Origin: Candidatus Latescibacterota bacterium
GTDB lineage: Bacteria > Latescibacterota > UBA2968 > GCA-2709665
Assembly: GCA_965219995.1 (NCBI GenBank)
Contig: CBDCOX010000002.1
Coordinates: 1,551,397 to 1,615,396, forward strand
Length of the DNA: 64,000 nucleotides
Direction of reading: 5' to 3'
This document shows, one piece after another, positions 35,269 to 63,683 of the stretch. The notes beneath the pieces were generated by a model. That model was not told where the DNA came from. It was given only the letters and a program-made list of their open reading frames with translations, and made no database searches. Position numbers and translations under genes: made by a program. Position 1 is the first letter of the stretch. Each line of letters starts with the position of its first letter.

Positions 35269-35354
35269 ATATATCGTCCTCGCAGGCTGCGAACCTGCGA
35301 AGCGGGTTGAGCGAAGGCGCGAATACGCAGGAGCCACAGCCCGTCGTGTTATAC
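35269..35354 (-). repeat. family A attC-like imperfect palindrome (A5)
   Basis: Minus strand: GTATAAC-ACGAC-...-CGCAGCC-TGCGAGGAC-GATATAT; centre GCGAAGCGGGTTGAGCGAAGGCG matches the other copies; lies upstream of the transglutaminase-like gene. Confidence 0.5.
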
Positions 35355-37630: not shown

Positions 37631-37834
37631 CGATCCCCCTGCAACAGGTGTTTGTCCTATTTGTCTGACGTTCGGCGAACATACCGACGGCAAGTCGGGT
37701 GAGGGATGGGACGGACCGAGCCGCAAGTGCTGCCGTCACCCGACGCCGGGACGATCGTGCTGCACTCCATGACGCCGAGGCCGCGAACCAGCGACATCCG
37801 CTAATCGATTCAGCCCCGCGCGTTTCACATTGTT

Positions 37835-40548: not shown

Positions 40549-40597
40549 TGCCTCAAGTTATGTTGATTCTCTCTTCCCACTTTATAAATCGTTCATC

Positions 40598-40684
40598 CGT
40601 TACCGAACCCCGGGAGCACAGCGAAGTGGGTTGCCGGAGGCCAAGCCGCCACCGGCCCCGCAGCGCAACACCGTGCTGTTAGAC
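40598..40684 (-). repeat. family A attC-like imperfect palindrome (A1)
   Basis: Minus strand starts GTCTAAC-AGCAC-GGTGTTGCGCTGCG; the TAA stop of 40679..42127 is inside GTCTAAC; the distal arm is degenerate (..GTTCGGT). Confidence 0.6.
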
Positions 40685-42157: not shown

Positions 42158-42249
42158 GTCTAACGTCTCGCCGGTTTGCGAACAGCGAAGGTGGTTGCCC
42201 AAGGCAAAGGCGATAGTAGCCGTCGCAGCGCAACACCGTGCTGTCAGCG
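42158..42249 (-). repeat. family A attC-like imperfect palindrome (A2, best copy)
   Basis: Minus strand: CGCTGAC-AGCAC-GGTGTTGCG-...-CGCAAACC-GGCGAGAC-GTTAGAC; the GTTAGAC box is 30 nt upstream of ATG 42127. Confidence 0.65.
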
Positions 42250-42286: not shown

Positions 42287-42895
42287 CTATTCAGACAGAA
42301 ACCGTTGCCAGCGATGACCCTCGGGATACAAGACTTCCAACCCGGCTCCCAACCATCTCTTTGCCTCGGCGGACATCAGCGGCAGGCAGGTCTGAAAGTC
42401 CAGGTCATCTTTCGAACGAGGATTCTTGGCTTTGTGCAGAAGCTGGACCTCAATCCGTATACAGGGAACACTCCCGTATGCAACGATCAAGTCGCCTCGC
42501 TGCCCGCCAATCAGTCTGCTGCGCTTGCTGAACCACCTGTCGCCTTCGCTTTCGGTCAACATGATCTGAAGCTGCCATACCTGTATGCCGGCATGGCCCC
42601 ATATGTCATGTATCCCGTAAGGCAAGTATTCTGATTCGGCCCATGGTCGCAATGAACCGGGCGGATCGGCCGCGTACAGATGCCAATCCGAGAGCCAGCG
42701 CTTTACCTCGAGTTGTTGATCCCGGTACACGATGACGTCAATATCACCGTGGTCCCGTACACGGGTTCCCACGAACTGCTCTACCGCATGGCCGCCGGCG
42801 AGTCCCCACATGAAAGGAGCGTTGGCGAACAATTTCGTCAACTCCTTGACGGACAAGGGTTTCCATTGGCTGAAGGGAATCTCAGGAGTGGTCAT
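42287..42895 (-). CDS. nucleotidyltransferase-fold protein (aminoglycoside/lincosamide NTase-like)
   Basis: 202-aa ORF; GLAGGHAVEQFVGTRVRDHGDIDVIV (G-G..x..D-x-D minimal NTase motif). Confidence 0.6.
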   Translation of the reverse strand: MTTPEIPFSQWKPLSVKELTKLFANAPFMWGLAGGHAVEQFVGTRVRDHGDIDVIVYRDQQLEVKRWLSDWHLYAADPPGSLRPWAESEYLPYGIHDIWGHAGIQVWQLQIMLTESEGDRWFSKRSRLIGGQRGDLIVAYGSVPCIRIEVQLLHKAKNPRSKDDLDFQTCLPLMSAEAKRWLGAGLEVLYPEGHRWQRFLSE

Positions 42896-42922
42896 ACAGT
42901 TCGCATTCTGCGCACAAACGAC

Positions 42923-42949
42923 GTCCGCTAATGCGCGAGCATTGCGGAC
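42923..42949. other. stable hairpin between the sigma-fusion gene and the NTase gene
   Basis: GTCCGC-T-AATGC GCGA GCATT-GCGGAC: 11-bp stem, one bulge, 4-nt loop. It starts where homology between the two NTase 5' flanks ends. Confidence 0.5.
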
Positions 42950-44858: not shown

Positions 44859-45183
44859 CTCGCTCCTCTGATTATGAAGGCCTTCACCGGTAATATCCCA
44901 ATTGGGGTGGATTGGGTGTACTTATCCTATGTATTTTGGTCTCCTGAGAGGAACAGGAAGATCGCAAAATATTAATAAACAATGGTTTAAAAGATTCCAA
45001 AAGACGAACGCCACATTGTGCTATTCGATGATATTGGGCCTGCCCGGAGAGTGTTCGGGGCTGGCAGTCGGAAGGAAATGAAGGGAGGGCCTAAAAAGGC
45101 TGGGTTGTTGGGGATTATTGTCAATGCCTGTTATATGTCGTCTTTTTCAGGGCGGTCAAATGTCGGCCTGCATTCCCGCCACT

Positions 45184-45265
45184 TGCTAACCCGCCCGGCT
45201 CTATTGGCCGGGCTGCCCGCGGGACCAGGGCGAGAATGGGCCGCAGCGGCAACAAGCTGTTACAC
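45184..45265 (-). repeat. family A-related attC-like element (A6)
   Basis: Minus strand starts GTGTAAC-AGCTT-GTTGCCGCTGCGG; internal hairpin GCCCGGC..GCCGGGC; distal TGCTAAC (plus strand); 35 nt downstream of the MTase stop. Confidence 0.45.
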
Positions 45266-45300
45266 GATTATGATTCACAACCGACACCGGATGGTGCCAT

Positions 45301-46068
45301 TCAAGTCGGCCTTTCCTTTTGCGCTTCGATCAGGAATTTCCTTGCCGTAAACGTCAACTCATCGCCGCCATCAAGTCGATGTTGCAGGCTTAACAGGTGC
45401 TGCATGTGGGTTTCGACTGAAAACCCGGGTACCAGCCAGGGAACAGCCTTCAAGTAATAGACCACGGCGCCCACGTCGGCGAAAGCCAGCCGGCCAGACC
45501 ATTCTTCGGCAGTGAAAATGGTCAGGCCCGTCGTTCTCAATTGAGTCACAACCCTTTCAAGTGTGGATCCGGGCCATTGCGGTTTAACGTCAAACGCTGC
45601 CAGTAAGTCACAGGCCCATAACCCGTGAACCTGCTGTGTCAGGAACGTGCCGCCAGTCGTGAGAATACGGGCAACTTCATTAGGGTTGAATGCAGAGTGG
45701 CGATTTAGAACAAGATCAAACTCGCTATCGGGAAAAGGCATCGGATCGCAATCAGTCAATCGAACATCTGCAACTTTCGCTCCCAACGGAACGAGACGAT
45801 TTGTTGCCAACTTGAGGTGAGGTGCATATTCCTCCTTCGCCACAACCTCTTCAGGCCAGAATTCCTGTAAGTTCAGGAACCGCTCACCACCACCTGTACC
45901 CAGGTCAATGACAGATGAACAACGACGCAAGAGCTCGGCAGCCCGTAAAGAATAAGACCATGGCGTCTTCTCTTCGAACATCCTGCCATCCAGCCAGGAA
46001 AAGTCCCATCCCGAGAAAGGCTGTTCTTCTTCACCCTTCCACGTATCAACAAGCTTGTCCAAGCCCAT
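45301..46068 (-). CDS. class I SAM-dependent methyltransferase
   Basis: 255-aa ORF; motif I VIDLGTGGGERFL. Confidence 0.75.
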   Translation of the reverse strand: MGLDKLVDTWKGEEEQPFSGWDFSWLDGRMFEEKTPWSYSLRAAELLRRCSSVIDLGTGGGERFLNLQEFWPEEVVAKEEYAPHLKLATNRLVPLGAKVADVRLTDCDPMPFPDSEFDLVLNRHSAFNPNEVARILTTGGTFLTQQVHGLWACDLLAAFDVKPQWPGSTLERVVTQLRTTGLTIFTAEEWSGRLAFADVGAVVYYLKAVPWLVPGFSVETHMQHLLSLQHRLDGGDELTFTARKFLIEAQKERPT

Positions 46069-46081
46069 ATTGCACGCTATC

Positions 46082-46199
46082 CGTGAACATCGAAGGCCAA
46101 ATTATCGTTCAGGCACTCGTTTTACGTGTTGTGCATTCCCGCAGCCGCGAATCGATTAGGCGAGGGGAATGCCCGAAGTAGAAAACGCTGCTGTTACGC
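46082..46199 (-). repeat. family A-related attC-like element (A7, weak)
   Basis: Minus strand starts GCGTAAC-AGCAG; stem GCATTCCC..GGGAATGC; left boundary uncertain. Confidence 0.3.
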
Positions 46200-46282
46200 C
46201 ACGTGGAAAAATCGAAAACATAGCCCACTCCGGTGATTCGCTTTCTTGAGGTGGCGACTTTGTTGGCAGTGTTTCACATCAC

Positions 46283-47037
46283 TCATCCAGGTCTGGTTGG
46301 TAACTTATCTGCCATGTCCGATATCACGCTGATGCAGAGCCCCATAAGATCCTGAGCGCTTTCCACATCATACCGAGCCTCCGGATGTTGAGTTGGGTTC
46401 CGGTATTCCACCCTCACTAGGTCGAGCGTGTCCAAAAGGTTCGCTGGAGGCTTGTTCCGTGACTTAGACCTTAGCGCGTAAACCATTGCCCCCACGTTGG
46501 ATTCTCAAGGCGATTCCGTCGGATGTGGAGCCGGTAGTAGGTTCGCAATACATCCTCGGTCGCCCGGAGCCAGTGAAACGCAGCAGCAGTGCCTTCACCA
46601 AAGAGGACGCATCGACCAGCACTCCCGATATCGAATTGGGCTAGGTCAGGCAGCTTCTGAAAGACGCTGTCGCGAAAGAACTTGGCCGGCTCGTTGAGTA
46701 GCCAGGTGGTGTTATATCTTCGTTCTGGCAATATGTAGATGGACTTCGTTCTGGACTCAGCGAAGATGATCTGTTCAAGGATCGCGATGTTCGCAACAAT
46801 GTCCTTGGCTCTGGGCCCGAGCAACTCAGTTGGTTCGCACTCGGAAAGCTCTGTCTTGATAGCAATTAGCTTGGCCATTCCACTGATTGACACGGTGAGG
46901 CCAGCGCCCACGATCTGTCGCTCAAGAGCTGTGATGTTCCGAACCGCATAGTCGATGTCGTTGGACGCACTGGTATGGCGAAGGTGCCTAATCAATAGAC
47001 CCACATGAATCAGTGAGTAACTGTTTCTTGATTCCAT
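46283..47037 (-). pseudogene. HEPN-like protein, frameshifted in a C5/G5 run
   Basis: ORFs 46471..47109 and 46283..46495 overlap at the homopolymer 46489-46493; one extra G would join ..NPTWG to AMVYALRSK... The C-terminal part carries R-x4-H (YRNPTQHPE) after helix AAFHWLRATEDVLRTYY. GAGGA RBS before ATG 47037. Confidence 0.45.
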
Positions 47038-47101
47038 GTAATCCTCACGCTTTACGCTGGATCGGTTAAGAACGAAAACGGTGTTAAAAGAAGATCGATC
47101 G

Positions 47102-48043
47102 CTATTCAAGACTCTCGATGTGAGGCTTTAGCGAAGAGACGAAGTTGCCCATTGCTGTAATCATGACATCCTGTATGTGAGGCCAATTGTCTTCTTCAGA
47201 TTTCAGCCCGCCTTCTTCAATGACATGTCTTACCCTCGAAGCTCTTCGCTGATCCAGCCGCTCCCATTGAAGCTCCCGTCCAAACCGCTTTTCAATTTGC
47301 TCGCGCTTTGCCGCCAGCGAATCGAAGTGTCGCTTGTTCTTCTCGCCGTCGCCGGTGTCGATATAGAGTTCAACAGCTGTCCTGTGCTTTAGCCAGACCA
47401 CATAATTGAAGGAAAGACCTGACTTGCCTGCCCCGGCGCCGATCCAATGTTCTTTAGTGGGCGATCTAGAACTGTGGATGGCAACGCCATGGCTCTTGGC
47501 ACGTTCCAGCAACTGTTGCCAGAATCTGATTCTAAGATGATGTCGCTCTGCAAGATCCTTCTTGGATTGACCGATGGACGTTGGCTCCTCACTAGGTCCA
47601 ACAATCACGGTGAAGAGCGGCGCGGGGTCTGAATTCCCAATCTGAAAGGCTGTCAGCTTCACCAAATAGAATGCTGTATCGGGTGGAGTCGACTCGTTCA
47701 ACCAGGCGATTGCTCTTGCATGTTCTGGTCGAGCGTGACTGGTGATCCAGACCGCGGTTTTCGCATTTATATTTGAAAGATAAGTAAGAACTTGCCCAAG
47801 GTGCTTGTGATCCGTCTGTTCAATTTGGTTTTCGATCACAACCACCTCACCGCTACCATCCTCGGCAACCAGATCGATCTCGAAATCCCCCGCAGATTTC
47901 TCTTTCTGGACTTCGGCAAGTCTGATGTCGAGCTTATCAGCCAGTACTTCGATGTTTTGCTCTAGCCACTGGGAGAAACCTCGTTCTTCATTCTCCCACA
48001 CTTTCCGTAGCGGCACCTCATCCAAATTTCCAATACGTGTCAT
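47102..48043 (-). CDS. PD-(D/E)xK nuclease-like protein with DUF4268-type C-terminal domain
   Basis: FEIDLVAEDGSGEVVVIENQIEQTDHKHLGQVLTYL (D..E-x-Q core plus HLGQ..TY) and C-terminal FWQQLLERAK..WIGAGAG..LYIDTGD..NKRHFD..WERLD. Confidence 0.6.
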   Translation of the reverse strand: MTRIGNLDEVPLRKVWENEERGFSQWLEQNIEVLADKLDIRLAEVQKEKSAGDFEIDLVAEDGSGEVVVIENQIEQTDHKHLGQVLTYLSNINAKTAVWITSHARPEHARAIAWLNESTPPDTAFYLVKLTAFQIGNSDPAPLFTVIVGPSEEPTSIGQSKKDLAERHHLRIRFWQQLLERAKSHGVAIHSSRSPTKEHWIGAGAGKSGLSFNYVVWLKHRTAVELYIDTGDGEKNKRHFDSLAAKREQIEKRFGRELQWERLDQRRASRVRHVIEEGGLKSEEDNWPHIQDVMITAMGNFVSSLKPHIESLE

Positions 48044-48297
48044 CTGTTGAAGCTCCCCCCTTGTAGTTTGGATTACGTAACCTCAGACTTTGTCGTGATT
48101 CTTCGGTCACTTCGATATGGCCAACTAGAACACGGCAAGAATGCGGAAGTTCTCTAACAATTCAGGCCTACCCTATATATACCCATCGTATCGCGTAAAA
48201 GGACGGTACGCCGTCCGCGTTCAATGAAAGCTTCCACAAGTTCACCGCCATTCGGTGTAGAAATGCCGGGGAAGGCGTCCAAAACACGGCGACAACA

Positions 48298-48537
48298 TTA
48301 ATCATTTCCGCCGATCGTTACATCGTTCGTGCCCTGCACCCAGCCCTGTACCAACGGCAGTTTCATACGAGCCATCGGGGCGGCGTCGGTAGTGTCACGG
48401 ATCGCCCCAGTCAGGCCACCCATGATCGGCATAATGGAGCCACCTGGCCTACTGTTCGTCCAGCAGTGCGTACAGGGTTGAATTCCATCCGCCAATCGTA
48501 CCGAGCCGACCATTGTCTCAATTGGAGTTCGACTCAA
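48298..48537 (-). CDS. hypothetical small protein (79 aa)
   Basis: ORF overlapping the upstream small ORF by 4 nt; no family recognised. Confidence 0.35.
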   Translation of the reverse strand: MSRTPIETMVGSVRLADGIQPCTHCWTNSRPGGSIMPIMGGLTGAIRDTTDAAPMARMKLPLVQGWVQGTNDVTIGGND

Positions 48538-48776
48538 TCAATGTCCCGGATCGTTGCGGAAGCAGTGGACACTTTCTTGAGTACCTCAGTTAGCTCCAAC
48601 GCGTCGGACTCATAGGCGACCCATAGGCAGTGTTCGCCCAGTCTCGGGATGGCGAACCACCGCTGCGTCTCTGGGCAATCGATTTCGTCTATCTTCTCAG
48701 CACTCTCGAGTATTGTGACATCGGGCCTTGTCAGAGGAAACGGATGATTTGCTATCATACCGTTTTCGAGAATCAT
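48534..48776 (-). CDS. hypothetical small acidic protein (80 aa)
   Basis: ORF translationally coupled (4-nt overlap) to 48298..48537. Confidence 0.4.
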   Translation of the reverse strand: MILENGMIANHPFPLTRPDVTILESAEKIDEIDCPETQRWFAIPRLGEHCLWVAYESDALELTEVLKKVSTASATIRDID

Positions 48777-48962
48777 GGCTTTCTCTCGGATGACTTGGCG
48801 AAACTTCAGGCCACTTCACACGTTGCGAAATTTGTACTCGTGACAAGGCACAAGACATTTGTGCGGCCGCGACGCCCGCGCTCGCCGGTTTGAGGGGTCG
48901 GGATGGTGTTGGTAACGCGGTCGTGGTGTTACATCTGAAGTTGGCGATTGCACTGAAACTTG

Positions 48963-49907
48963 CTATCTGGGTACCTCACCCAAGTTGTCGGAAACATCAA
49001 GACGATCGCTTACGCGTTGGGCCGCCATCGAAATCGCTTCGGCAACCGCTTGGGTGCCCTGCCCCGAGAGATTGGGGAATGCAGAGACGGCGAGGTAGCG
49101 ATCTAGGTGTCCCCACAAGTGTCGTAAGACTTCTTGGCCGTAGGTCGTTAGTGAGACTATGATGTCTGGAACCATGCAGAGTTCGTACCACATCAGTTCG
49201 AATTCGCTGAAAAATGGATCAGTTATCCTGCTACCCCAGCATTTGACAACACATCGATGGATGAATTCATAGGCTTCTGAGCCTATCGTTATGCCGCCAT
49301 TGTCCCCAGCCATTCTAACCACTTCCGCGACTCGACACAGACGCAACTCAAGATAAGTCGCAGAACGGTTGGTGCAGGCTAACAGAAATTCTATTCCGGA
49401 TATATGCCCTTGCCTAACTGGAAGGATCGCCTTCTGAAAGCCAAGGAGTGTGTCATCGACGGATGGGAGAACTGTATCGTCACGCGCCAGCTCTAAGAGA
49501 TCCTCTCGAGCACTTTTTTCGAAGTAGGAATCCCTACGCAGTAAAATTGGCCCTTCGTTCGCCAGCTGATGCTTGACCCTAGCATAGATCGTTAGATCCT
49601 CGGATGGATCGTGAAGAATGAGGACGACTGGAAGATTTAGGCGTTGCCAGTATCGCCTATGCCTCTTGCTTGGGTAGTACTTGACGTGCATTGAGTTACT
49701 TTGACGGAAGTAGCTTTCACCTGACTTGACCTGAACTGCGATAATGGATCCCGTACTGACTGCAGACTCGGGCGCAAGGAATTCGACCTGTCCGTCGATT
49801 CCCAGATCGGAGCTTGGCGTAGCGCGCCATATCGCGTCCATCTCCGCACAGACAGAGTGGACTTTCGCAAGCCCTCTATGTTCTTGAGTAACATTGCTGG
49901 GCCGCAA
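48963..49907 (-). CDS. DUF4365 (restriction-endonuclease-like) domain protein
   Basis: N-terminus SDLGIDGQVEFL..GSIIAVQVKSGESYF matches the DUF4365 pattern; ~200-aa uncharacterised C-terminal domain. Confidence 0.55.
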   Translation of the reverse strand: MRPSNVTQEHRGLAKVHSVCAEMDAIWRATPSSDLGIDGQVEFLAPESAVSTGSIIAVQVKSGESYFRQSNSMHVKYYPSKRHRRYWQRLNLPVVLILHDPSEDLTIYARVKHQLANEGPILLRRDSYFEKSAREDLLELARDDTVLPSVDDTLLGFQKAILPVRQGHISGIEFLLACTNRSATYLELRLCRVAEVVRMAGDNGGITIGSEAYEFIHRCVVKCWGSRITDPFFSEFELMWYELCMVPDIIVSLTTYGQEVLRHLWGHLDRYLAVSAFPNLSGQGTQAVAEAISMAAQRVSDRLDVSDNLGEVPR

Positions 49908-50044
49908 AGGGTGAAGATCCTTGTTTTAATGGTGGGCGCTGCTTAGCAGAATCGGACAACCCTCCAAGCTCCAGCCACATACCGTTCTCGCCAATTTTAG
50001 GTGACGTCCCGCGCACTTGCGAACTCAGGTCTTTCAGCGCTTTG

Positions 50045-50449
50045 TCATGTTTTTTTTAACTCTGCTATTACTTCGTTGATATAGCGCAGTCTAAATCTTT
50101 CAAATCTATCAAGAACATAACAATCAATTGGTCTTACCTCATATGAAGGCATCCTTAGGAGTTCATCGAGCAACTGATCTCTGCTTGCAAGGAATAGCTT
50201 CCCATACAGATAGCCATATACACACGATTTCGCTAGGTGTTCATCGTAAAGGAATTCATAATTGGGATTGAATTTGATTTTTTCCTTGATTTCTTTGCAG
50301 TAGTTTTCTGCGTCTTGGGCACGAAAACGGTATATGCTGCTGATTTGATCTTTGTCCCATTGTTCCATCGTGAAGTTCCTTTCTTCTTCAATGGAATTGT
50401 TCCGCTGCGAGAAGGGATAGAAGCTGCGAACCTTCCCCTCCACGGACAT
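50045..50449 (-). CDS. hypothetical protein, AT-rich orphan
   Basis: 134-aa ORF in the most AT-rich stretch of the window; Lys/Glu/Tyr-rich; no family recognised. Confidence 0.45.
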   Translation of the reverse strand: MSVEGKVRSFYPFSQRNNSIEEERNFTMEQWDKDQISSIYRFRAQDAENYCKEIKEKIKFNPNYEFLYDEHLAKSCVYGYLYGKLFLASRDQLLDELLRMPSYEVRPIDCYVLDRFERFRLRYINEVIAELKKT

Positions 50450-50473
50450 TCCGACTGTTTCGGGACGCTCCCC

Positions 50474-50556
50474 GATGATAGCGACTACAGCGAAGATCGG
50501 CGGTTTGTGTCAGGACGAAATTACGATGGGTTGCAGCAGCAACAGGCTGTTACATT
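50474..50556 (-). repeat. family A-related attC-like element (A8; homologous to A6)
   Basis: Minus strand starts ATGTAAC-AGCCT-GTTGCTGCTGCAACCC; contains ACAGCGAAG..GGCGGTTTG; left boundary uncertain. Confidence 0.4.
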
Positions 50557-50589
50557 ACGATGATTTCCAATCGATACAAACGGAGTCTT

Positions 50590-51201
50590 TCAAGTTTGCC
50601 CCACCTTCTGCGCTTCGATCAGGAATCTCCTTGCTGTGAACGCCAACTCATCGTCGCTATCAAGTCGGTGTTCTAGCCCCATCAGCGGCAGGCACGTCTG
50701 AAAGTCCAGGTCATCTTTCGAACGAGGATTCTTGGATTTGTACAGAAGTCGAACCTCAATCCGTATACAGGGAACACTCCTGTATGCAACGATCAAGTCT
50801 CCTCGTTGCCCGTCATTCAGCCTGCTGCGCTTGCTGAAACACCCGGCGCCTTCGCCTTCAGTCAACATGATCTGAAGCTGCCACGCCTGTATGCCGGTAT
50901 GGCCCCAGATGTCATGTATCCCGTACGGCGAGTATTCTGACTCCGCCCACGGCCGCAATGAGCCGGATGGATCGGCCGCGTACAGATGCCAATCCGAGAG
51001 CCAGCGCTGTACGTCGATTTGCTGATCGCGAAACACGATGACGTCGATATCACCGTGGTCCCGAAAACGCTTTCCCACGAACTGCTCAACCGCATAGCCA
51101 CCGGCGAGTCCCCACAGGAAAGGAGCGCCAACGAACAATTGCGTCATTTCCCGGACGGATAGAGGCTGCCAATTGCTGTAGGGAATCTCAGGAGTGGTCA
51201 T
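50590..51201 (-). CDS. chimeric nucleotidyltransferase: NTase body plus tail of the methyltransferase gene
   Basis: aa 1-170 are co-linear with 42287..42895. The last ~30 aa (LEHRLDSDDELAFTARRFLIEAQKVGQT) match the C-terminus of 45301..46068 (LQHRLDGGDELTFTARKFLIEAQKERPT), and so does the 3' flank. Confidence 0.6.
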   Translation of the reverse strand: MTTPEIPYSNWQPLSVREMTQLFVGAPFLWGLAGGYAVEQFVGKRFRDHGDIDVIVFRDQQIDVQRWLSDWHLYAADPSGSLRPWAESEYSPYGIHDIWGHTGIQAWQLQIMLTEGEGAGCFSKRSRLNDGQRGDLIVAYRSVPCIRIEVRLLYKSKNPRSKDDLDFQTCLPLMGLEHRLDSDDELAFTARRFLIEAQKVGQT

Positions 51202-51231
51202 AAAGTTCGCATTCTGCGCGTGAAAGATGTC

Positions 51232-51323
51232 CGCTAACGTGACTCACGATATGCGATCCTGTGAAGCAGGTTGCCGAGGGCCAAGCCGCCGAAGGCGGCG
51301 AAGCGCAAACCAACGCGTTAGAA
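51232..51323 (-). repeat. family A attC-like imperfect palindrome (A4)
   Basis: Minus strand: TTCTAAC-GCGTT-GGTTTGCG-..GCCGCC TTC GGCGGC..-CGCATATC-GTGAGTCAC-GTTAGCG. Confidence 0.6.
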
Positions 51324-52150: not shown

Positions 52151-52864
52151 TCAGGCCGGTGTTCCGCGCCAGAAATCGTTGTACGCCGCCAGGGGCCCGT
52201 CCCCGTGCGGCCCGGTAGCCAGATCCAGCCCCCCAAAGAGATAGACGGACTCGCCCCCCACTGCCATAACGGGGATTCGCCTGACACCGGGACGTTCGGC
52301 GCCGGCAGAGTAGTCCTTCGCACCGTTGTGTGGATACAGACAGTCCCACCGGCCGGCACGAAGATCGTACTGCCACAGATCGTTCAGCTGGGGGTGCTCC
52401 CCTTTCCCTCCTGCAAATCCTCCGAACAGATACAGGTGATCTCCGATTACAGCGTGTCCCAGCCCGTACCGAGGGGAAGGCCGCGTTACATCATCCGCCC
52501 GGTTCTCCTGAATGCAGGTCCAGGCGCCTTTGTCGGGATCGAATTCCCACAGATCGTTGAAGAACTCCGGCGTTCGCCCCTGACTGTCCCGACCGCCCCA
52601 CAGGTAGAGCCTGCCGTTCCAGCCGGCAAGCACGGGACAGTATCGTTTCGGCGGCCAACCGTCGCGCCCATTCGATGCAGGCCCCAGGTACTCCCATCTC
52701 CCGGCCGGTGCCCCGTAGGTCCACAGCTGTGCGTGCGTCATCGCGCCATGCCCCCCCATCAGATACAGGGAGTCGCCCAGAGCAACCGCCCCCATCCCGC
52801 CGTACCCGGCGGGGCGATGCCCCTCCGCCGCAATTCCTGATGCGCGCCCGTCGTCGGGCTCTAA
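52151..52864 (-). pseudogene. Kelch-repeat protein, C-terminal part (split by IS)
   Basis: Kelch blades (LYLMGG, RLYLWGGRD..FNDLWEFD, HLYLFGG..LNDLWQYD, VYLFGG). The frame continues from 54418..54835 once the IS and one CTAA copy are removed (..WELL|EPDDGRASG..). Confidence 0.8.
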
Positions 52865-54417
52865 CCTCAATGTGAAATAAATCAGGCTGCATTCTGTAGT
52901 GCGTTGCAGATTTTGCGGTATTGTTTTTCGGTGTGCTTGTTGCGTTGGAGACGCAGGGTAAGCCGCCCTTCGGGTCGGATAAGGTGTCCGGCGCGGTTGA
53001 TGATCTCGAACCGGAGGGTGCGTATGGATTTGAGGGGCCATCGGTTGGTATTTTTCAAGGTGCGATTGCGTTGTGTCAGTCCGGTTTCGATCTGGAAGTT
53101 GACCAGGAGGTTGTGCGCGAGAATGACGAACTGTTGCCAGGCACTATTGGCGTTGTAATCGTGTGTGGGGATGGTATCGAAGCTGAGACCGGTCTTGAGT
53201 TCCCCGATGGCTTTTTCGTGCATGCCGCGCCCTGCCATGAAGCGCCAGAGCGCGCGCAACTTGAAGGGTAGATTGCTGGCCACGGCAGAGTATTCGAAGG
53301 TGCCGTCATCGGGATCGAACAGGTCCAACTGGTAATTCTTGCGGGTTTTATGGAAGACGCGTTTTCGAAAGATGGCAATGTTGAGGGTGCGTTCCCATTT
53401 TTTGACCGTCAGCGTTGACGGAAAGCCGTCGACGCCTTTCTCGATGCGCTGCCAGTTGCTGCATTGACGGATTTTGTGCTGTAAGTCCAGGCCATTCCAA
53501 AAGGGAACCTTGATGGCATACGAGGCCTTGTTCTTGATAAGCGTGTTCACCACATCCTCTTTGAAAAAGTCGCCATCCATGCGGAATCGCAGGGAGTAGG
53601 CGTGTCCCAGGCTTTCTTTGATCTGAGAGAACACATCCTTTAGAAACTCGATGGAGGCGCTGCCATCGTTGATGTTGCCGGGCCGGTTGTGCGCGCGGAG
53701 AAAATGACCACTGTCGGCCAGATAAGCGGTAATCGGATAGTAACTGGGGACTTTGCGATGATGCGGATTATACCCACGGCGGGCGCCGTCGACGCGTTTG
53801 CCCGTGCACAAGACGGTGCCGTCCACGTCGATCGTCAATTTTCGTGCGCGCAACAACTTGATCTTATGAGCAACCACGGCGGCGTTGAGGGCTTTCAGGG
53901 CGTCGAGACCCTTGTCGGTAAACCGTCTCAGAAACAGGCTCATGCTGCGGGGCGTCGGTAGATCCTTCAGACCGCAGAACCGCTGCAGCAGGGGATCTCC
54001 TTTCAAGAAATCCAGATGCCGCAACCGACGGCCGCCTACCACCAGCAAACCCAACAGAACACGGGAAAGGCTCACCACACCGAAGTCGCCGCCAAAGCAC
54101 GCACTGCCCAGGTGACGGCGCAATTGTCTGTTCCAATCGATGGTTCGCAAATACCGCATCAACAGCTCCAAACCCGCATACGAGGTGAGGCCTTCACCCG
54201 TGAATTCGATCTTCAAATCGTCGTTGACACGCGCGTGCAAATCCGCTTTCTTTCGTCTCACTGTACGTGGCCTTTCGTTTTGGGTGAATTGGGGGTTTCG
54301 TCGCTTCCCAATATACCAAAATGGAAGGCCTTTTCCTATTGATAAATATAGACTTATTCGTGTTTTCGCCTGGTCTTCAATGCTCCGAATTTCATCAACA
54401 TTATTTTCGCATTGAGG
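52865..54417 (-). mobile_element. IS1380-family insertion sequence (1553 bp)
   Basis: Inverted ends CCTCAATGTGAAATAAATC and (reverse complement) CCTCAATGCGAAAATAATG; 4-bp direct repeat CTAA at 52861-52864 and 54418-54421; single transposase ORF. Confidence 0.85.
52882..54261 (-). CDS. IS1380-family DDE transposase
   Basis: 459-aa ORF; N-terminal LTSYAGLELL, TIDVDGTVL..GARRGYNPHH, LRFRMDGDFF, RGMHEKAIGELK: same layout as IS1380/ISEcp1-type transposases. Confidence 0.85.
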   Translation of the reverse strand: MRRKKADLHARVNDDLKIEFTGEGLTSYAGLELLMRYLRTIDWNRQLRRHLGSACFGGDFGVVSLSRVLLGLLVVGGRRLRHLDFLKGDPLLQRFCGLKDLPTPRSMSLFLRRFTDKGLDALKALNAAVVAHKIKLLRARKLTIDVDGTVLCTGKRVDGARRGYNPHHRKVPSYYPITAYLADSGHFLRAHNRPGNINDGSASIEFLKDVFSQIKESLGHAYSLRFRMDGDFFKEDVVNTLIKNKASYAIKVPFWNGLDLQHKIRQCSNWQRIEKGVDGFPSTLTVKKWERTLNIAIFRKRVFHKTRKNYQLDLFDPDDGTFEYSAVASNLPFKLRALWRFMAGRGMHEKAIGELKTGLSFDTIPTHDYNANSAWQQFVILAHNLLVNFQIETGLTQRNRTLKNTNRWPLKSIRTLRFEIINRAGHLIRPEGRLTLRLQRNKHTEKQYRKICNALQNAA

Positions 54418-54835
54418 CTAACAGCTCCCACGAGGCTGTCTTCGGATCATAGGCCCAGAGATCGTTCAGCTTGATCTCCCCCTTTCCGGGCCCACGCACC
54501 GAGGACCCGCCGAAAAGGTAAAGCCTGCCGTTCATTGGCAGCCAGGTCGTGAGCTTCCGGGTGCACGGTCTGGTATCGGACGGTCTGAACCCGATGCGCC
54601 CATTGTGGTCTTCCAACCGCGTCCACCGGCCTCGACCCGGGTCGTAGCGCCACAGGTCGTTCAATGAGCCCTGGACGGAAAGATCTCCAGGCCCTTTCGG
54701 CCGGCCGTACATCACTTTTATCCCGCCGAACAGGTAGACGCATCCATTGTAGCTCAACATCCCGCCGAAGGCCGCCCGCCTGCAGGGTACATCCTCGGCC
54801 TGCTCCTGGTCCGGATACAGCAGTTCCCACTTCAT
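54418..54835 (-). pseudogene. Kelch-repeat protein, N-terminal part (split by IS)
   Basis: MKWELLYPDQ.. with blades VYLFGG..LNDLWRYD, RLYLFGG..LNDLWAYD; the reading frame runs into the IS end. Confidence 0.8.
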
Positions 54836-56456: not shown

Positions 56457-56752
56457 CCCTGTCAGGCCGGTGCTCCGCGCCAGAAATCGTTGTACGCCGC
56501 CAGCGGCCCGTCCCCGCGCGGCCCGGTAGCCAGGTCGTGAGCTTCCGGGTACACGGTCTGGTATCGGACGGTCTGAACCCGATGCGCCCATCGTGGTCTT
56601 CCAACCGCGTCCACCGGCCTCGACGCGGGTCGTAGCGCCACAGGTCGTTCAATGAGCCCTGGCCGGATGCAGAAGTTCCCACTTCATCGTTGACCTCCGA
56701 ACGGTGTGACTTGTGATTCTGGGGTGAAAGTCCGGCGAATTCCATTGGTTGC
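56457..56752 (-). pseudogene. remnant of a second Kelch gene copy with two internal deletions
   Basis: 56457-56532 matches 52146-52222, 56529-56667 matches 54541-54680, and 56668-56752 matches 54815-54900 including the ATG. The junctions sit at AGCCAG and CTGG.CGGA microhomologies. Confidence 0.75.
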
Positions 56753-61621: not shown

Positions 61622-62935
61622 TCATATCCGGCCCTCTTCGGGTACCTCGCGCCCGCCGTCCCAGAAGCCTGGCTTGTCGGTCGCCGACGGCCAGTACCCG
61701 TCGGCGTCTTCATCCCATTGGTTTCCGCACATCGACGAGATGATGGTCCATTCCGCGGCCCCGAAATCCGGCTCGGGATGGTACAGGAAGCGCTTCAACC
61801 CCGCCTCGCGAGAAGCATTCAGGATGCCGTAGAGGTCGCGCGCCTGCATCGGGTCGCCCCCGTGGGGGCGGCGCCCGGTGGACACCCAGGCGATCACCTT
61901 GTCGGGATCACCTACGGCCGCCAGGGCCCGCCGGGTCTCGTTGTAGACCACCCTGGAGAAGAATTCGTCGGGGAAACCCATCTCCATGTCCATCAGCGAG
62001 TTGACGCCGGGCAGTTCGATGCCCAACAGCGCCTTCACGACGGCGAAACACTCCGCCTCGCTCAGGGACGGATTCCACTTTCGCAACCGTCGTACCCAGC
62101 GGGACATGGTTCCGTACATGCCGTCCATGCCGCGGTGCCAATAATAGTGCTTCGGAAAGATATAGTCGAAATACTCCGCCATCTGACTGTAATTCTGTCC
62201 GGTGAGCGATGACCATGCCGGGGCCCGCGGGATGCCGCCCAGCTCCACCTTGCGATCGACGGCGTCGACCTGTTGCCGCATGTACTGCCAGTCGAAGCGC
62301 GAGCGCTCCTGCCGCTTGCGCAGCCAGTAGAGCACGTCCTCGTTGACGTCGAACAGGAGCATTGCCCCCAGCATCCCCCCGTCGGCGTGGTACCGAACCA
62401 TTTCCGGCGTCAGATTGTGCAGACGCTCCCGAAAGTGGGTGATGCCGCGCTGGATTCGATCCATCTCGGCGCCGACCTGGGCGAAGCGGGCCTCCTCGCC
62501 CGGACGGATCTCCAGGAGCTCGCCCCCATGGTGGAACGCCAACTCGTAGTGATTTTCGCCCGGACCGTCGACAATGACGCCGTGCACCTGCGGAAAGGCG
62601 TTCATCTGGTCCTGCACGTGTGCGGTCGGGCCGCCTCCGGCGAAGATCAGGATTCGCCAGCCCCGTTCCGCGGCGTTGTCCAGCATTGCGCGCAGCTTTT
62701 TCTCTTTTGAGACGTCGCGCGGACGCTGCTCCGGGACTTCCGCCCCCAGGGCCTCGTACACCTTCGGGTCGGGCGCCCAAGCGGGAATGGTCGTGCCATC
62801 CTCCTGGAGGAACGTCATGCGGCCGACGGCCAGACCGCGCACGCCGCCATCCTCCCAGGCGTCGAACCGCTCCTCGAACCCGTCGAGCCAGTGTTCGAAC
62901 GGGCTGTCACTGCAGGTGAATACCCAGAGTTTCAT
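61622..62935 (-). CDS. conserved hypothetical protein (437 aa), paralogue of 54960..56336
   Basis: See 54960..56336; shared blocks along the whole length. Confidence 0.65.
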   Translation of the reverse strand: MKLWVFTCSDSPFEHWLDGFEERFDAWEDGGVRGLAVGRMTFLQEDGTTIPAWAPDPKVYEALGAEVPEQRPRDVSKEKKLRAMLDNAAERGWRILIFAGGGPTAHVQDQMNAFPQVHGVIVDGPGENHYELAFHHGGELLEIRPGEEARFAQVGAEMDRIQRGITHFRERLHNLTPEMVRYHADGGMLGAMLLFDVNEDVLYWLRKRQERSRFDWQYMRQQVDAVDRKVELGGIPRAPAWSSLTGQNYSQMAEYFDYIFPKHYYWHRGMDGMYGTMSRWVRRLRKWNPSLSEAECFAVVKALLGIELPGVNSLMDMEMGFPDEFFSRVVYNETRRALAAVGDPDKVIAWVSTGRRPHGGDPMQARDLYGILNASREAGLKRFLYHPEPDFGAAEWTIISSMCGNQWDEDADGYWPSATDKPGFWDGGREVPEEGRI

Positions 62936-63089
62936 TATTCCCTCCTTTGGGGTGGCAGGGACGATTCACGTTCACGTTCCCGCCGTGCGCAAAGAGAACA
63001 GTTCGTGTGGGAGGGCTTTCCATCTGAATCTCTGTCCACGATGGGAATCAATAGACCAATCACACTCCAAATACTCAGGCTGCGATTTC

Positions 63090-63183
63090 ATACGACGTTT
63101 CGCCGGTTTGCGAACACCAGACGAGGGATGCCCGAAGGGTCAAGGCGCGAACAGCTCCGCAGCGCAACACCGCACCGTTACAA
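63090..63183 (-). repeat. family A attC-like imperfect palindrome (A3)
   Basis: Minus strand: TTGTAAC-GGTGC-GGTGTTGCG-...-CGCAAACC-GGCGAAAC-GTCGTAT. Confidence 0.6.
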
Positions 63184-63203
63184 GATGACGAGAGAATTCC
63201 ACC

Positions 63204-63232
63204 TTGACAAGCGTCACGTTACACCTTACACT
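63204..63232 (+). promoter_or_regulatory. candidate sigma-70 promoter of higBA
   Basis: TTGACA (63204-63209), 17-nt spacer, TACACT (63227-63232); only 6 nt before the GTG at 63239, so the transcript would be nearly leaderless. Confidence 0.3.
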
Positions 63233-63238
63233 TTGTCG

Positions 63239-63683
63239 GTGATAAAAACATTCGCAGACAAGGAAACCCAACGCATTTACCGTACCGGCGAATCCAGGAG
63301 GTTGCCCGTTGACCTGGTGCGAAGAGCAATCCGCCGCCTAGATTACATCGACCTCGCCAACACGTTGAATGATCTGAGAGTTCCATCTGGTGTCCTGTCC
63401 CAAAAATACCTCACCATTCTTCCTCAGATTCATCCCGTCTCGCAGCGTTGCCATCGCTCGCCGACCGTGCCAGGTCGCCTGCGCTCCGGCGCCTTGCGAG
63501 CCGGGCGACTCTGCGGCCGAATTTTGGCAACTTATTTCCGGGACAGAACACTGCAACCGCCTGCACCAGTTGAAGAAGGACCGTAAGGGACAACACGCCA
63601 TCGCCATCAACGAACAATGGCGCATCTGTTTTCGGTTTGTCGACGGGGACGCTTACGACGTAGAAATCACGGACTATCAATGA
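63239..63683 (+). pseudogene. higB: HigB-type (RelE/ParE superfamily) toxin interrupted by MITE-1
   Basis: VIKTFADKETQRIYRTGESRRLPVDLVRRAIRRLDYIDLANTLNDLRVPSG | ~162-nt insert | NRLHQLKKDRKGQHAIAINEQWRICFRFVDGDAYDVEITDYQ; the two halves are in different frames. Confidence 0.8.
63390..63551. mobile_element. MITE-1 copy (162 nt) inserted in higB
   Basis: Ends GTGTCCTGTCCCAAAAATACC and GGCAACTTATTTCCGGGACAGAACAC; flanked by TG on both sides; boundaries +/-3 nt. Confidence 0.75.

Follow-up and report, generated by a model that had tools for sequence, protein, structure and literature searches.

A presumptive defence island in a Latescibacterota contig is probably a run of separately acquired integron-type cassettes, one of them encoding a DREN nuclease fusion

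The segment between positions 46069 and 50589 of a 64-kb stretch of Candidatus Latescibacterota DNA (hereafter the window) carries a series of defence-type genes between two presumptive array elements, A7 and A8. The question that it raises is whether these genes entered the genome as one block or one by one. The open reading frames (ORFs) across the window lie nearly all on the minus strand and specify miscellaneous accessory functions. An earlier note, made from the sequence alone, had named six ORFs within the segment, all of which exist, on the minus strand, and had taken them for a single island acquired horizontally. The analysis described here favours a different interpretation, to which we assign a probability of about 0.7: the 46.1-50.6 kb region is a stretch of an integron-type array in which some five independent minus-strand cassettes, separately acquired, lie next to each other. 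In the order of transcription, the cassettes encode a 107-aa protein, a protein composed of a DUF4365 nuclease domain (DREN) and a conserved C-terminal domain (CTD), an 80-aa protein, a PD-(D/E)xK/DUF4268 protein corresponding to the PADLOC candidate PDC-S11 and a frameshifted HEPN-like protein.

In integrons, each of a series of co-oriented ORFs is followed by an attC site, composed of an R'' box (RYYYAAC) and an R' box (GTTRRRY) around an imperfect palindrome, and the crossover catalysed by the integrase is expected at G|TT. The window was compared with metagenomic loci carrying homologues of its genes (L numbers). Loci L001 and L011, in which the DUF4365 gene is 83-86% identical at the amino acid level, share DNA with the window only over the interval 48855-49997; in both, the gene is preceded by an SLFN_AlbA_2 gene and followed by a PRA-PH gene. 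The upstream context being common to L001 and L011, the two count as one independent comparison. Identity between L001 and the window amounts to 90% over 1143 bp. On the 5' side, homology with both loci starts at 49997; on the 3' side, homology with L001 breaks at 48855, inside an attC-type site and precisely at its core's G|T. At this point L001 reads CACAAACG|TTATAC, with a canonical GTTRRRY core (AAACG|TTATAC), against CACAAATG|TCTTGT in the window. A similar situation is found with the HEPN-like gene. Loci L005 and L006 (87% and 83% aa identity, respectively) share with the window only the interval 46198-47046 and the attC site (46133-46206); upstream of the position corresponding to 47046, they show a HicAB pair, unrelated and on the opposite strand, and the canonical core GTTAGGG.

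The closest relative of the PDC-S11 gene, in L012 (84% aa identity), shares only the ORF, with homology beginning at 48048, and is followed by a TIR-domain gene. The 80-aa ORF (tiny1) adjoins no homologue of the neighbouring genes in other loci and was found only in L010. Thus, the DUF4365, HEPN-like and PDC-S11 homologues all have different neighbours, and the gene order of the segment, whose conservation the earlier note had proposed to examine, is not kept in unrelated loci. Different neighbours together with junctions at G|TT were found for the DUF4365 and HEPN-like units, to which the evidence of modularity is limited; the PDC-S11, tiny1 and 107-aa units are putative cassettes. In L002 and L023, DREN-CTD homologues form part of canonical attC arrays, and in L014, L015 and L022 homologues of the 107-aa protein lie beside canonical attC sites. 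Separate occurrence with different neighbours, and homology breaks falling at attC cores, therefore argue for about five independent cassettes and against acquisition as a block.

Sites resembling attC were analysed with a covariance model (R1) seeded with five canonical sites from L005 and L006 and two sites from the window. Scanning of the window returned five sites of this attC subfamily, along with two weaker candidates (Table 1). The five sites all lie on the minus strand, and three of them were absent from the seed (E≤4e-6). R1 recognises a single attC subfamily and misses the sites at 48850-48935 and 45152-45267 as well as A8. The site that closes the HEPN-like cassette gave a full-length match when left out of the seed (36 bits, E 2.8e-8) and is 79-85% identical to the attC following the homologous gene in L005 and L006, with canonical ends GTTAAAT and GTTACAA. 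Its R''-like box is GCGTAAC (46193-46199) and its R'-like box GTAAAAC (46119-46125). This is element A7; its end lies more likely at 46119 than at 46082, where it had been drawn.

Although the interval between A7 and A8 had implicitly been treated as devoid of array elements, an attC-type site was found at 48850-48935 and junctions at about 47046-47055 and 49997-50005. The former site displays an R'' box (GATGTAAC, 48928-48935), a 7-bp L-box (GACCGCG/CGCGGCC), an unpaired spacer and the R'-like sequence GTCTTGT (48850-48856). Where the PDC-S11 and HEPN-like cassettes meet, an R''-like TTTTAAC (47083-47089) and an R'-like GTAAAGC (47049-47055) delimit a 41-nt stretch. At the junction between the 107-aa and DUF4365 cassettes, an R''-like ATGACAA (50042-50048) overlaps the stop codon and is followed by an R'-like GTCACCT (49999-50005). 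The spacer preceding the PDC-S11 gene, where the tiny-ORF cassette is expected to end and the PDC-S11 leader to lie, contains a terminator-like hairpin followed by a T-run (48197-48216) and two GTT cores, GTTAGAG (48152-48158) and GTTCTAG (48125-48131).

Table 1. Features of the 46.1-50.6 kb segment and attC-type sites of the window.
Feature	Position	Strand	Length or note	Basis
R1 attC-subfamily sites	35269-35354, 40582-40684, 42158-42249, 46119-46199, 63090-63183	-		covariance model
Weaker R1 candidates	37663-37741, 51237-51323
attC-type site closing the HEPN-like cassette (A7, 3' end revised)	46119-46200	-		R1 and homology
HEPN-like gene, frameshifted	46283-47037	-	family about 248-250 aa	homologue alignment
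Junction of PDC-S11 and HEPN-like cassettes	47043-47089	-	short	attC assignment by eye only
PD-(D/E)xK and DUF4268 protein, PADLOC candidate PDC-S11	47102-48043	-	313 aa
Spacer, expected end of tiny-ORF cassette and PDC-S11 5' leader	48044-48297	-		sequence reading
tiny2	48298-48537	-	79-aa ORF, TTG start	ORF only
tiny1	48534-48776	-	80-aa ORF	called gene in L010, coding-like composition
attC-type site of the DUF4365 cassette	48850-48935	-		homology breakpoint and boxes
DREN/DUF4365 PD-(D/E)xK nuclease (about residues 1-145) with conserved 170-aa CTD	48963-49907	-	314 aa
Junction of 107-aa and DUF4365 cassettes	49997-50049	-	short	attC reading of 50 nt by eye
Member of a small, conserved family, helical; gene strongly AT-rich	50045-50368	-	107 aa	HMMER family
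attC-like site closing the chimeric nucleotidyltransferase cassette (A8)	50481-50556	-		5'-arm similarity

R1 does not detect A8, which folds no better than shuffled sequences and ranks as the weakest element. It contains an R'' box (AATGTAAC) and a possible R' box (GTAGTCG, 50483-50489), and its 5' arm, together with the 3' end of the upstream ORF (50526-50672), is 78% identical to 45236-45383. The upstream ORF, a nucleotidyltransferase gene (50590-51201), is itself chimeric, as seen when 50526-51237 is compared with 42374-42931 and 45236-45383. Most of the gene is 88% identical to a copy at 42287-42895, while its last 30 or so codons, along with the A8 arm, show 78% identity with the S-adenosylmethionine-dependent methyltransferase cassette, at its 3' end and attC arm. 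The chimera thus provides evidence of recombination between cassettes.

The base composition of the segment was examined with sliding windows. The G+C fraction (GC) is 0.507 between 46069 and 50589 against 0.563 in the window as a whole, and this is the minimum among all stretches of 4521 bp (mean 0.561, standard deviation 0.025), none of those elsewhere falling below 0.530. The AT-rich character initially attributed to the segment is therefore real but small, about 5 points. Strong AT-richness is confined to 50050-50349 (GC 0.37), corresponding to the gene for the 107-aa protein, whose ORF has a GC of 0.40; the remaining genes and cassettes range between 0.50 and 0.53. Because GC is not uniform and the gene immediately to the left, a methyltransferase gene at 45301-46068, has a value of 0.523, there is no sharp compositional edge at A7 or A8. 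The modestly low GC might reflect a foreign origin, as is common for cassettes of any kind.

The protein encoded by the DUF4365 cassette matches the Pfam DUF4365 domain between residues 11 and 139 (E 9.5e-24). An additional C-terminal domain had been recognised before; its size, given as about 200 residues, is really about 170. The PADLOC Aga_REase-PNTD profiles match residues 10-144 only. A profile built from 35 members of the family matches the DREN-APAZ chains of SPARDA in the Protein Data Bank (PDB; 9qbq, 9qbp and 9jsb), and an AlphaFold2 model of the protein (predicted local distance difference test score, pLDDT, 88.7) could be superimposed by Foldseek on the DREN domain of the XauSPARDA filament 9qcc (E 1.7e-10, root-mean-square deviation 2.7 Å). 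Residues D38, Q59 and K61, invariant in the family, align with the catalytic residues D41, Q60 and K62 of NbaSPARDA. Profile, model and residue alignment identify the DUF4365 domain as the DREN effector nuclease of SPARDA, with its catalytic D-Q-K triad kept.

The CTD is conserved as strongly as the nuclease part. Its invariant residues include E42, R44, R47, W95 and D103 (alignment numbering from residue 146 of the full protein) and, modelled alone, it yields a pLDDT of 91.2 and a predicted template modelling score of 0.88. Structural searches with this model gave no significant match in the PDB or BFVD (best E 0.22 and 0.53, respectively); the weak similarities at E 0.22 are to MarR-type winged-helix proteins. 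No PDB match, SPARDA chains included, was obtained that would relate the CTD to APAZ. The CTD also has no Pfam match, and the Crr6 domain (PF08847) was undetected in all 35 members at E≤1. No Argonaute gene lies nearby, the neighbours of the gene being tiny1 and the gene for the 107-aa protein. The family comprises 46 homologues at E≤0.001, with Zixibacteria and Polyangiaceae among the bacterial lineages and one archaeal metagenome-assembled genome, and occurs in four independent attC-array contexts. A tblastn search of plasmids returned only distant DUF4365 matches. Beside one DREN-CTD homologue, a minus-strand operon of three genes (L025:8063-12025) encodes a 313-aa unknown, a 612-aa ORC/CDC6-like AAA protein and a 397-aa metallophosphatase; genes for a Dam methylase and ParB_N come after it. 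The operon looks like an uncharacterised defence system.

That integron cassettes can carry defence genes is already established, for sedentary as well as mobile integrons (10.1101/2024.07.02.601686; 10.1101/2024.07.02.601719). The segment resembles the Vibrio defence cassettes in having single small genes, co-oriented cassettes bounded by attC and stand-alone nuclease fusions. The closest parallel is with Divona, from the sedentary chromosomal integron of Vibrio cholerae N16961, in which a DUF4365 N-terminus is joined to a Crr6-like (PF08847) C-terminal domain; the cassette protects V. cholerae once moved to the array's first position (Darracq et al., 10.1101/2024.07.02.601686). Both proteins are borne on cassettes and combine an N-terminal DUF4365 nuclease with an unrelated C-terminal domain. 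Unlike Divona, the protein described here has a CTD without Crr6 (compared by Pfam profile and description), its host is not a Vibrio (GC 56%) and its role in defence is predicted.

With SPARDA, the protein has in common its 145 N-terminal residues, that is, the DREN PD-(D/E)xK fold with the D-Q-K triad. It differs from SPARDA in lacking APAZ, in having no Argonaute gene nearby and in its length (314 aa versus about 440 aa). Since neither APAZ nor Argonaute is present, activation would not be guide-directed and the protein would represent the effector half only. The DREN domain of NbaSPARDA is monomeric and inactive on its own and becomes active upon tetramerisation (PMC12205087). By analogy, the DREN-CTD protein most likely acts in abortive infection: the monomer would be inactive at rest; the CTD would sense an infection cue and drive oligomerisation of the nuclease, as the Argonaute filament does in SPARDA, and the oligomer would degrade nucleic acid non-specifically. 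We tentatively propose that DREN-CTD proteins are uncharacterised stand-alone, cassette-borne abortive-infection nucleases, in which the CTD replaces Argonaute-APAZ sensing and switches DREN on through oligomerisation induced by a ligand or a phage protein; this is one possibility, and not the likeliest outcome. The DREN fusion fits the suggestion that the segment holds at least one uncharacterised protein, and the family, with its unmatched C-terminal fold, is where some novelty of the locus lies. It offers a testable combination of a SPARDA effector nuclease and a confidently folded unknown domain and, should the CTD prove to be an autonomous sensor, an example of an effector from an Argonaute system re-used without Argonaute. 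All else in the segment (PDC-S11, the broken HEPN-like gene and the two small unknown proteins) is ordinary cassette cargo. For the recent view that integron arrays store compact defence candidates consisting of single genes, the locus is a further example, from outside Vibrio.

Identification of the product of 47102-48043 as a PD-(D/E)xK/DUF4268 protein was corroborated by a Pfam DUF4268 match (E 3e-31). Examination of the window proteins with PADLOC, a check that had been recommended, produced a full-length match to PDC-S11 (PDLC04914) at E 4.5e-123, in which residues 1-312 align with positions 1-311 of the 314 in the profile. The family is large (838 homologues at E≤1e-30, across phyla) and uniform: among the matches listed, nearly all are full length (98-100% of the query) and most measure 309-318 aa, and identity across phyla is 55-64%. 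A profile search of the genome contigs revealed three loci only, all distant. TIR-domain genes adjoin the PDC-S11 homologues in L012 and L013. A 252-aa gene following the homologue in L013 was considered as a HEPN-like protein and proved not to be the HEPN-like protein. In the part of the literature on PDC-S11 available to us, support for the family is computational and correlational, with the correlation found in haloarchaea. The window protein resembles PDC-S11 members, and MdgA and MdgB, validated modification-dependent nucleases containing DUF4268 (Cell Host Microbe 2025, PMC12366544), in its PD-(D/E)xK N-terminus, DUF4268 C-terminus and very wide phyletic spread. MdgA is described as having no homology to known defences (PMC12366544), and by this description its identity with PDC-S11 is unlikely. 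PDC-S11 is most likely a restriction nuclease that acts on its own and is probably modification-dependent (type IV-like); DUF4268 would serve as the DNA-recognition module, and phage DNA, probably modified, would be the target.

The HEPN-like gene had been presented as encoding one protein; the gene is there and it is split. It consists of two ORFs, 46471-47109 and 46283-46495. Relative to intact 248-aa homologues, and by alignment of the DNA with L005 and L006, one nucleotide is deleted at 46488/46489, directly following a run of five Gs. A set of 274 homologues spans both ORFs (among those listed, most are 247-257 aa long), and the two pieces match consecutive parts of phrog_32483. The ATG at 47037 is the real start codon, so that the 8-nt overlap with the DUF4268 ORF is an artefact of a TTG start. 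This start, along with the presence of separate HEPN-like cassettes elsewhere, led us to exclude a two-gene operon formed with PDC-S11. The motif R213-N-P-T-Q-H218 (RNPTQH) has R213, N214 and H218 invariant in 24 homologues, and a second conserved helix pair carries GExTAAAFHxLRATE. Among these 24 members, HEPN PF05168 was matched by seven (best E 0.0077) and DUF4145 PF13643 by two, all below the curated cut-offs. The invariant RNxxxH near the C-terminus is shared with HEPN abortive-infection RNases (PF05168/PF13643), from which the family differs by its sub-threshold profiles and the window copy by a frameshift upstream of the motif. As it stands, the product is 188 aa long and lacks the Rx4H motif, which lies in the other frame (46283-46495); the putative RNase is predicted to be inactive in this copy, provided that the frameshift does not stem from a sequencing error. 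A cassette protein with a HEPN-like domain only, Esos, has been described in Vibrio (10.1101/2024.07.02.601686). In L005 and L006, MITE-like insertions, with terminal inverted repeats GTTAGAAGCC ... GGCTTCTTAG, lie between the HEPN-like 3' untranslated region and attC (one at L005:8841-9111, two at L006:2312-2734); they are absent from the window.

The two tiny ORFs, described as coupled, do exist and overlap by 4 nt, with only tiny1 having a coding-like character. Its GC at the three codon positions (0.56/0.41/0.59) resembles that of neighbouring genes, and substitutions distribute over these positions as 3/1/5, suggesting that it is probably a real small gene. It gave no Pfam, PADLOC, NCBIfam or PHROG match, and a viral scan was empty. 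In tiny2, GC at the second position is atypical (0.55), substitutions distribute as 2/4/1, no Pfam, PADLOC, NCBIfam or PHROG family matches, and only an internal 44-aa version is called in L010. By these measures tiny2 looks non-coding and its status as a gene is doubtful.

The AT-rich ORF adjacent to A8, first thought to be an orphan, belongs to a family of 97 homologous clusters (exhaustive HMMER, E≤1e-3), all of about 105-115 aa. The ORF is open to 50449; the clusters align to residues 28-131 and, because all homologues align from residue 28, the true start is M28, at 50368, giving a protein of 107 aa. Searches against Pfam, NCBIfam, PADLOC and the PDB gave no consistent match, and tblastn against plasmids was empty. 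Csx28 of type VI-B systems (NF040556) was considered and rejected: the window's protein alone gave a match (E 0.005-0.012), whose 16-17 bits fall short of the cut-off of 50, and the 31 homologues gave none. In three loci (L019:1297-1800, L020:1168-1605 and L021:597-1061), a conserved gene encoding about 145-167 aa, with the start MEGFEI..., comes after the 107-aa family member. This gene, a possible partner of the family, is absent from the window.

Several observations weigh against the proposal of separate cassettes in an integron-type array, and some of them are equally points in favour of its competitors. One competitor holds that the genes came en bloc from an AT-richer donor, settled between two array elements and cooperate as one or more multi-gene systems. 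The segment is indeed the lowest-GC 4.5-kb stretch of the window, contains three nuclease-type genes in a row and has the order of its DUF4365, tiny and DUF4268 ORFs kept in L010, as would also be expected of a block. Yet L010 is 97% identical at the DNA level and, from this identity, appears to be the same array in a close relative, hence not independent evidence. Homologues of the DUF4365 and HEPN-like genes, 82-87% identical in amino acid sequence, occur singly with homology ending at attC cores; the 84% identical PDC-S11 homologue has only the ORF in common; the overlap that appeared to couple DUF4268 and HEPN vanishes with the ATG at 47037; and GC is uneven (0.40 in one gene, 0.50-0.53 in the others), the cassette on the left having the same GC. 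The single-island interpretation is thus quite improbable, the genes occurring as separate units elsewhere. What stands of the defence-type label is that three genes have defence-linked domains; they form no multi-gene system and one is frameshifted.

A further possibility, equally compatible with cassettes, is that the nucleases are toxins, addiction modules, selfish restriction-like genes or decaying cargo. The frameshift in the HEPN-like gene, the degenerate look of the R' cores, the insertion sequence (IS) element and chimeric cassette nearby, and the frequency of toxin-antitoxin cassettes in such arrays (HicAB, HigB-like and DUF4258/MqsA next to homologues) are all in keeping with it. In addition, PDC-S11 is a candidate defence family, searches of Pfam, PADLOC and the PDB with the HEPN-like family gave nothing significant, and two of the five cassettes offer no functional clue; for all five families a defence role is putative. 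Still, the PDC-S11 and DREN-CTD genes are unbroken and strongly conserved between phyla, the latter with invariant catalytic residues, which points to selection on function; no antitoxin-like partner accompanies either, and their domain relatives are validated defence effectors. We regard a non-defence nature of the cargo as unlikely. Finally, the elements could be intergenic repeats of another kind (repetitive extragenic palindromes or MITE-like) scattered among co-oriented accessory genes. TAAC boxes of the R'' type occur, as does pairing of L-boxes, but the R' cores at the cassette junctions (the R' and R'-like boxes given above, and 63090-63096) begin with GTA or GTC rather than with the canonical GTT found in the homologous cassettes of L001, L005 and L006. 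The array might therefore be recombination-dead, or some cores misplaced; decay or an integrase of relaxed specificity could account for such cores. No integron integrase or attI was found in the 64-kb window (ORFs scanned, Pfam recombinases; no integrase-sized plus-strand ORF), and the array could be a CALIN or have its integrase outside the window. An Rfam scan of the whole window gave no match, and the candidate elements fold no better than shuffled sequences (z -0.8 to +0.3). The junctions at 47043-47089 and 49997-50049 are below the usual attC length and were read by eye, and no junction could be assigned between PDC-S11 and the tiny-ORF unit. Generic hairpin and attC scans, either empty or swamped by false positives, are uninformative and not evidence; scans for sigma-70 promoters and terminators were not above chance. 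Against intergenic repeats of another kind, homologous units in L001, L002, L005, L006, L014, L015, L022 and L023 terminate with textbook RYYYAAC...GTTRRRY sites, homology breaks where the integrase crossover is expected, at G|TT, and the R1 matches are strand-specific. This alternative is very improbable. In an integron-type array, the cassettes would have been inserted singly by integrase-mediated recombination between attC and attI, and would be expressed weakly or only once shuffled near a promoter.

Elsewhere in the window, the IS element (52882-54261; DDE_Tnp_1_4 transposase, 459 aa) lies inside the array, adjoining Kelch-like ORFs. Near-identical repeats of 75 nt (52151-52225 and 56462-56536) and 143 nt (54537-54679 and 56525-56667) around it suggest duplicated cassettes. 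Among the few plus-strand ORFs, 62891-63586 shows a sub-threshold match to HigB-like toxins (23.9 bits against a cut-off of 27) and may be a toxin-antitoxin cassette of the array-stabilising kind.

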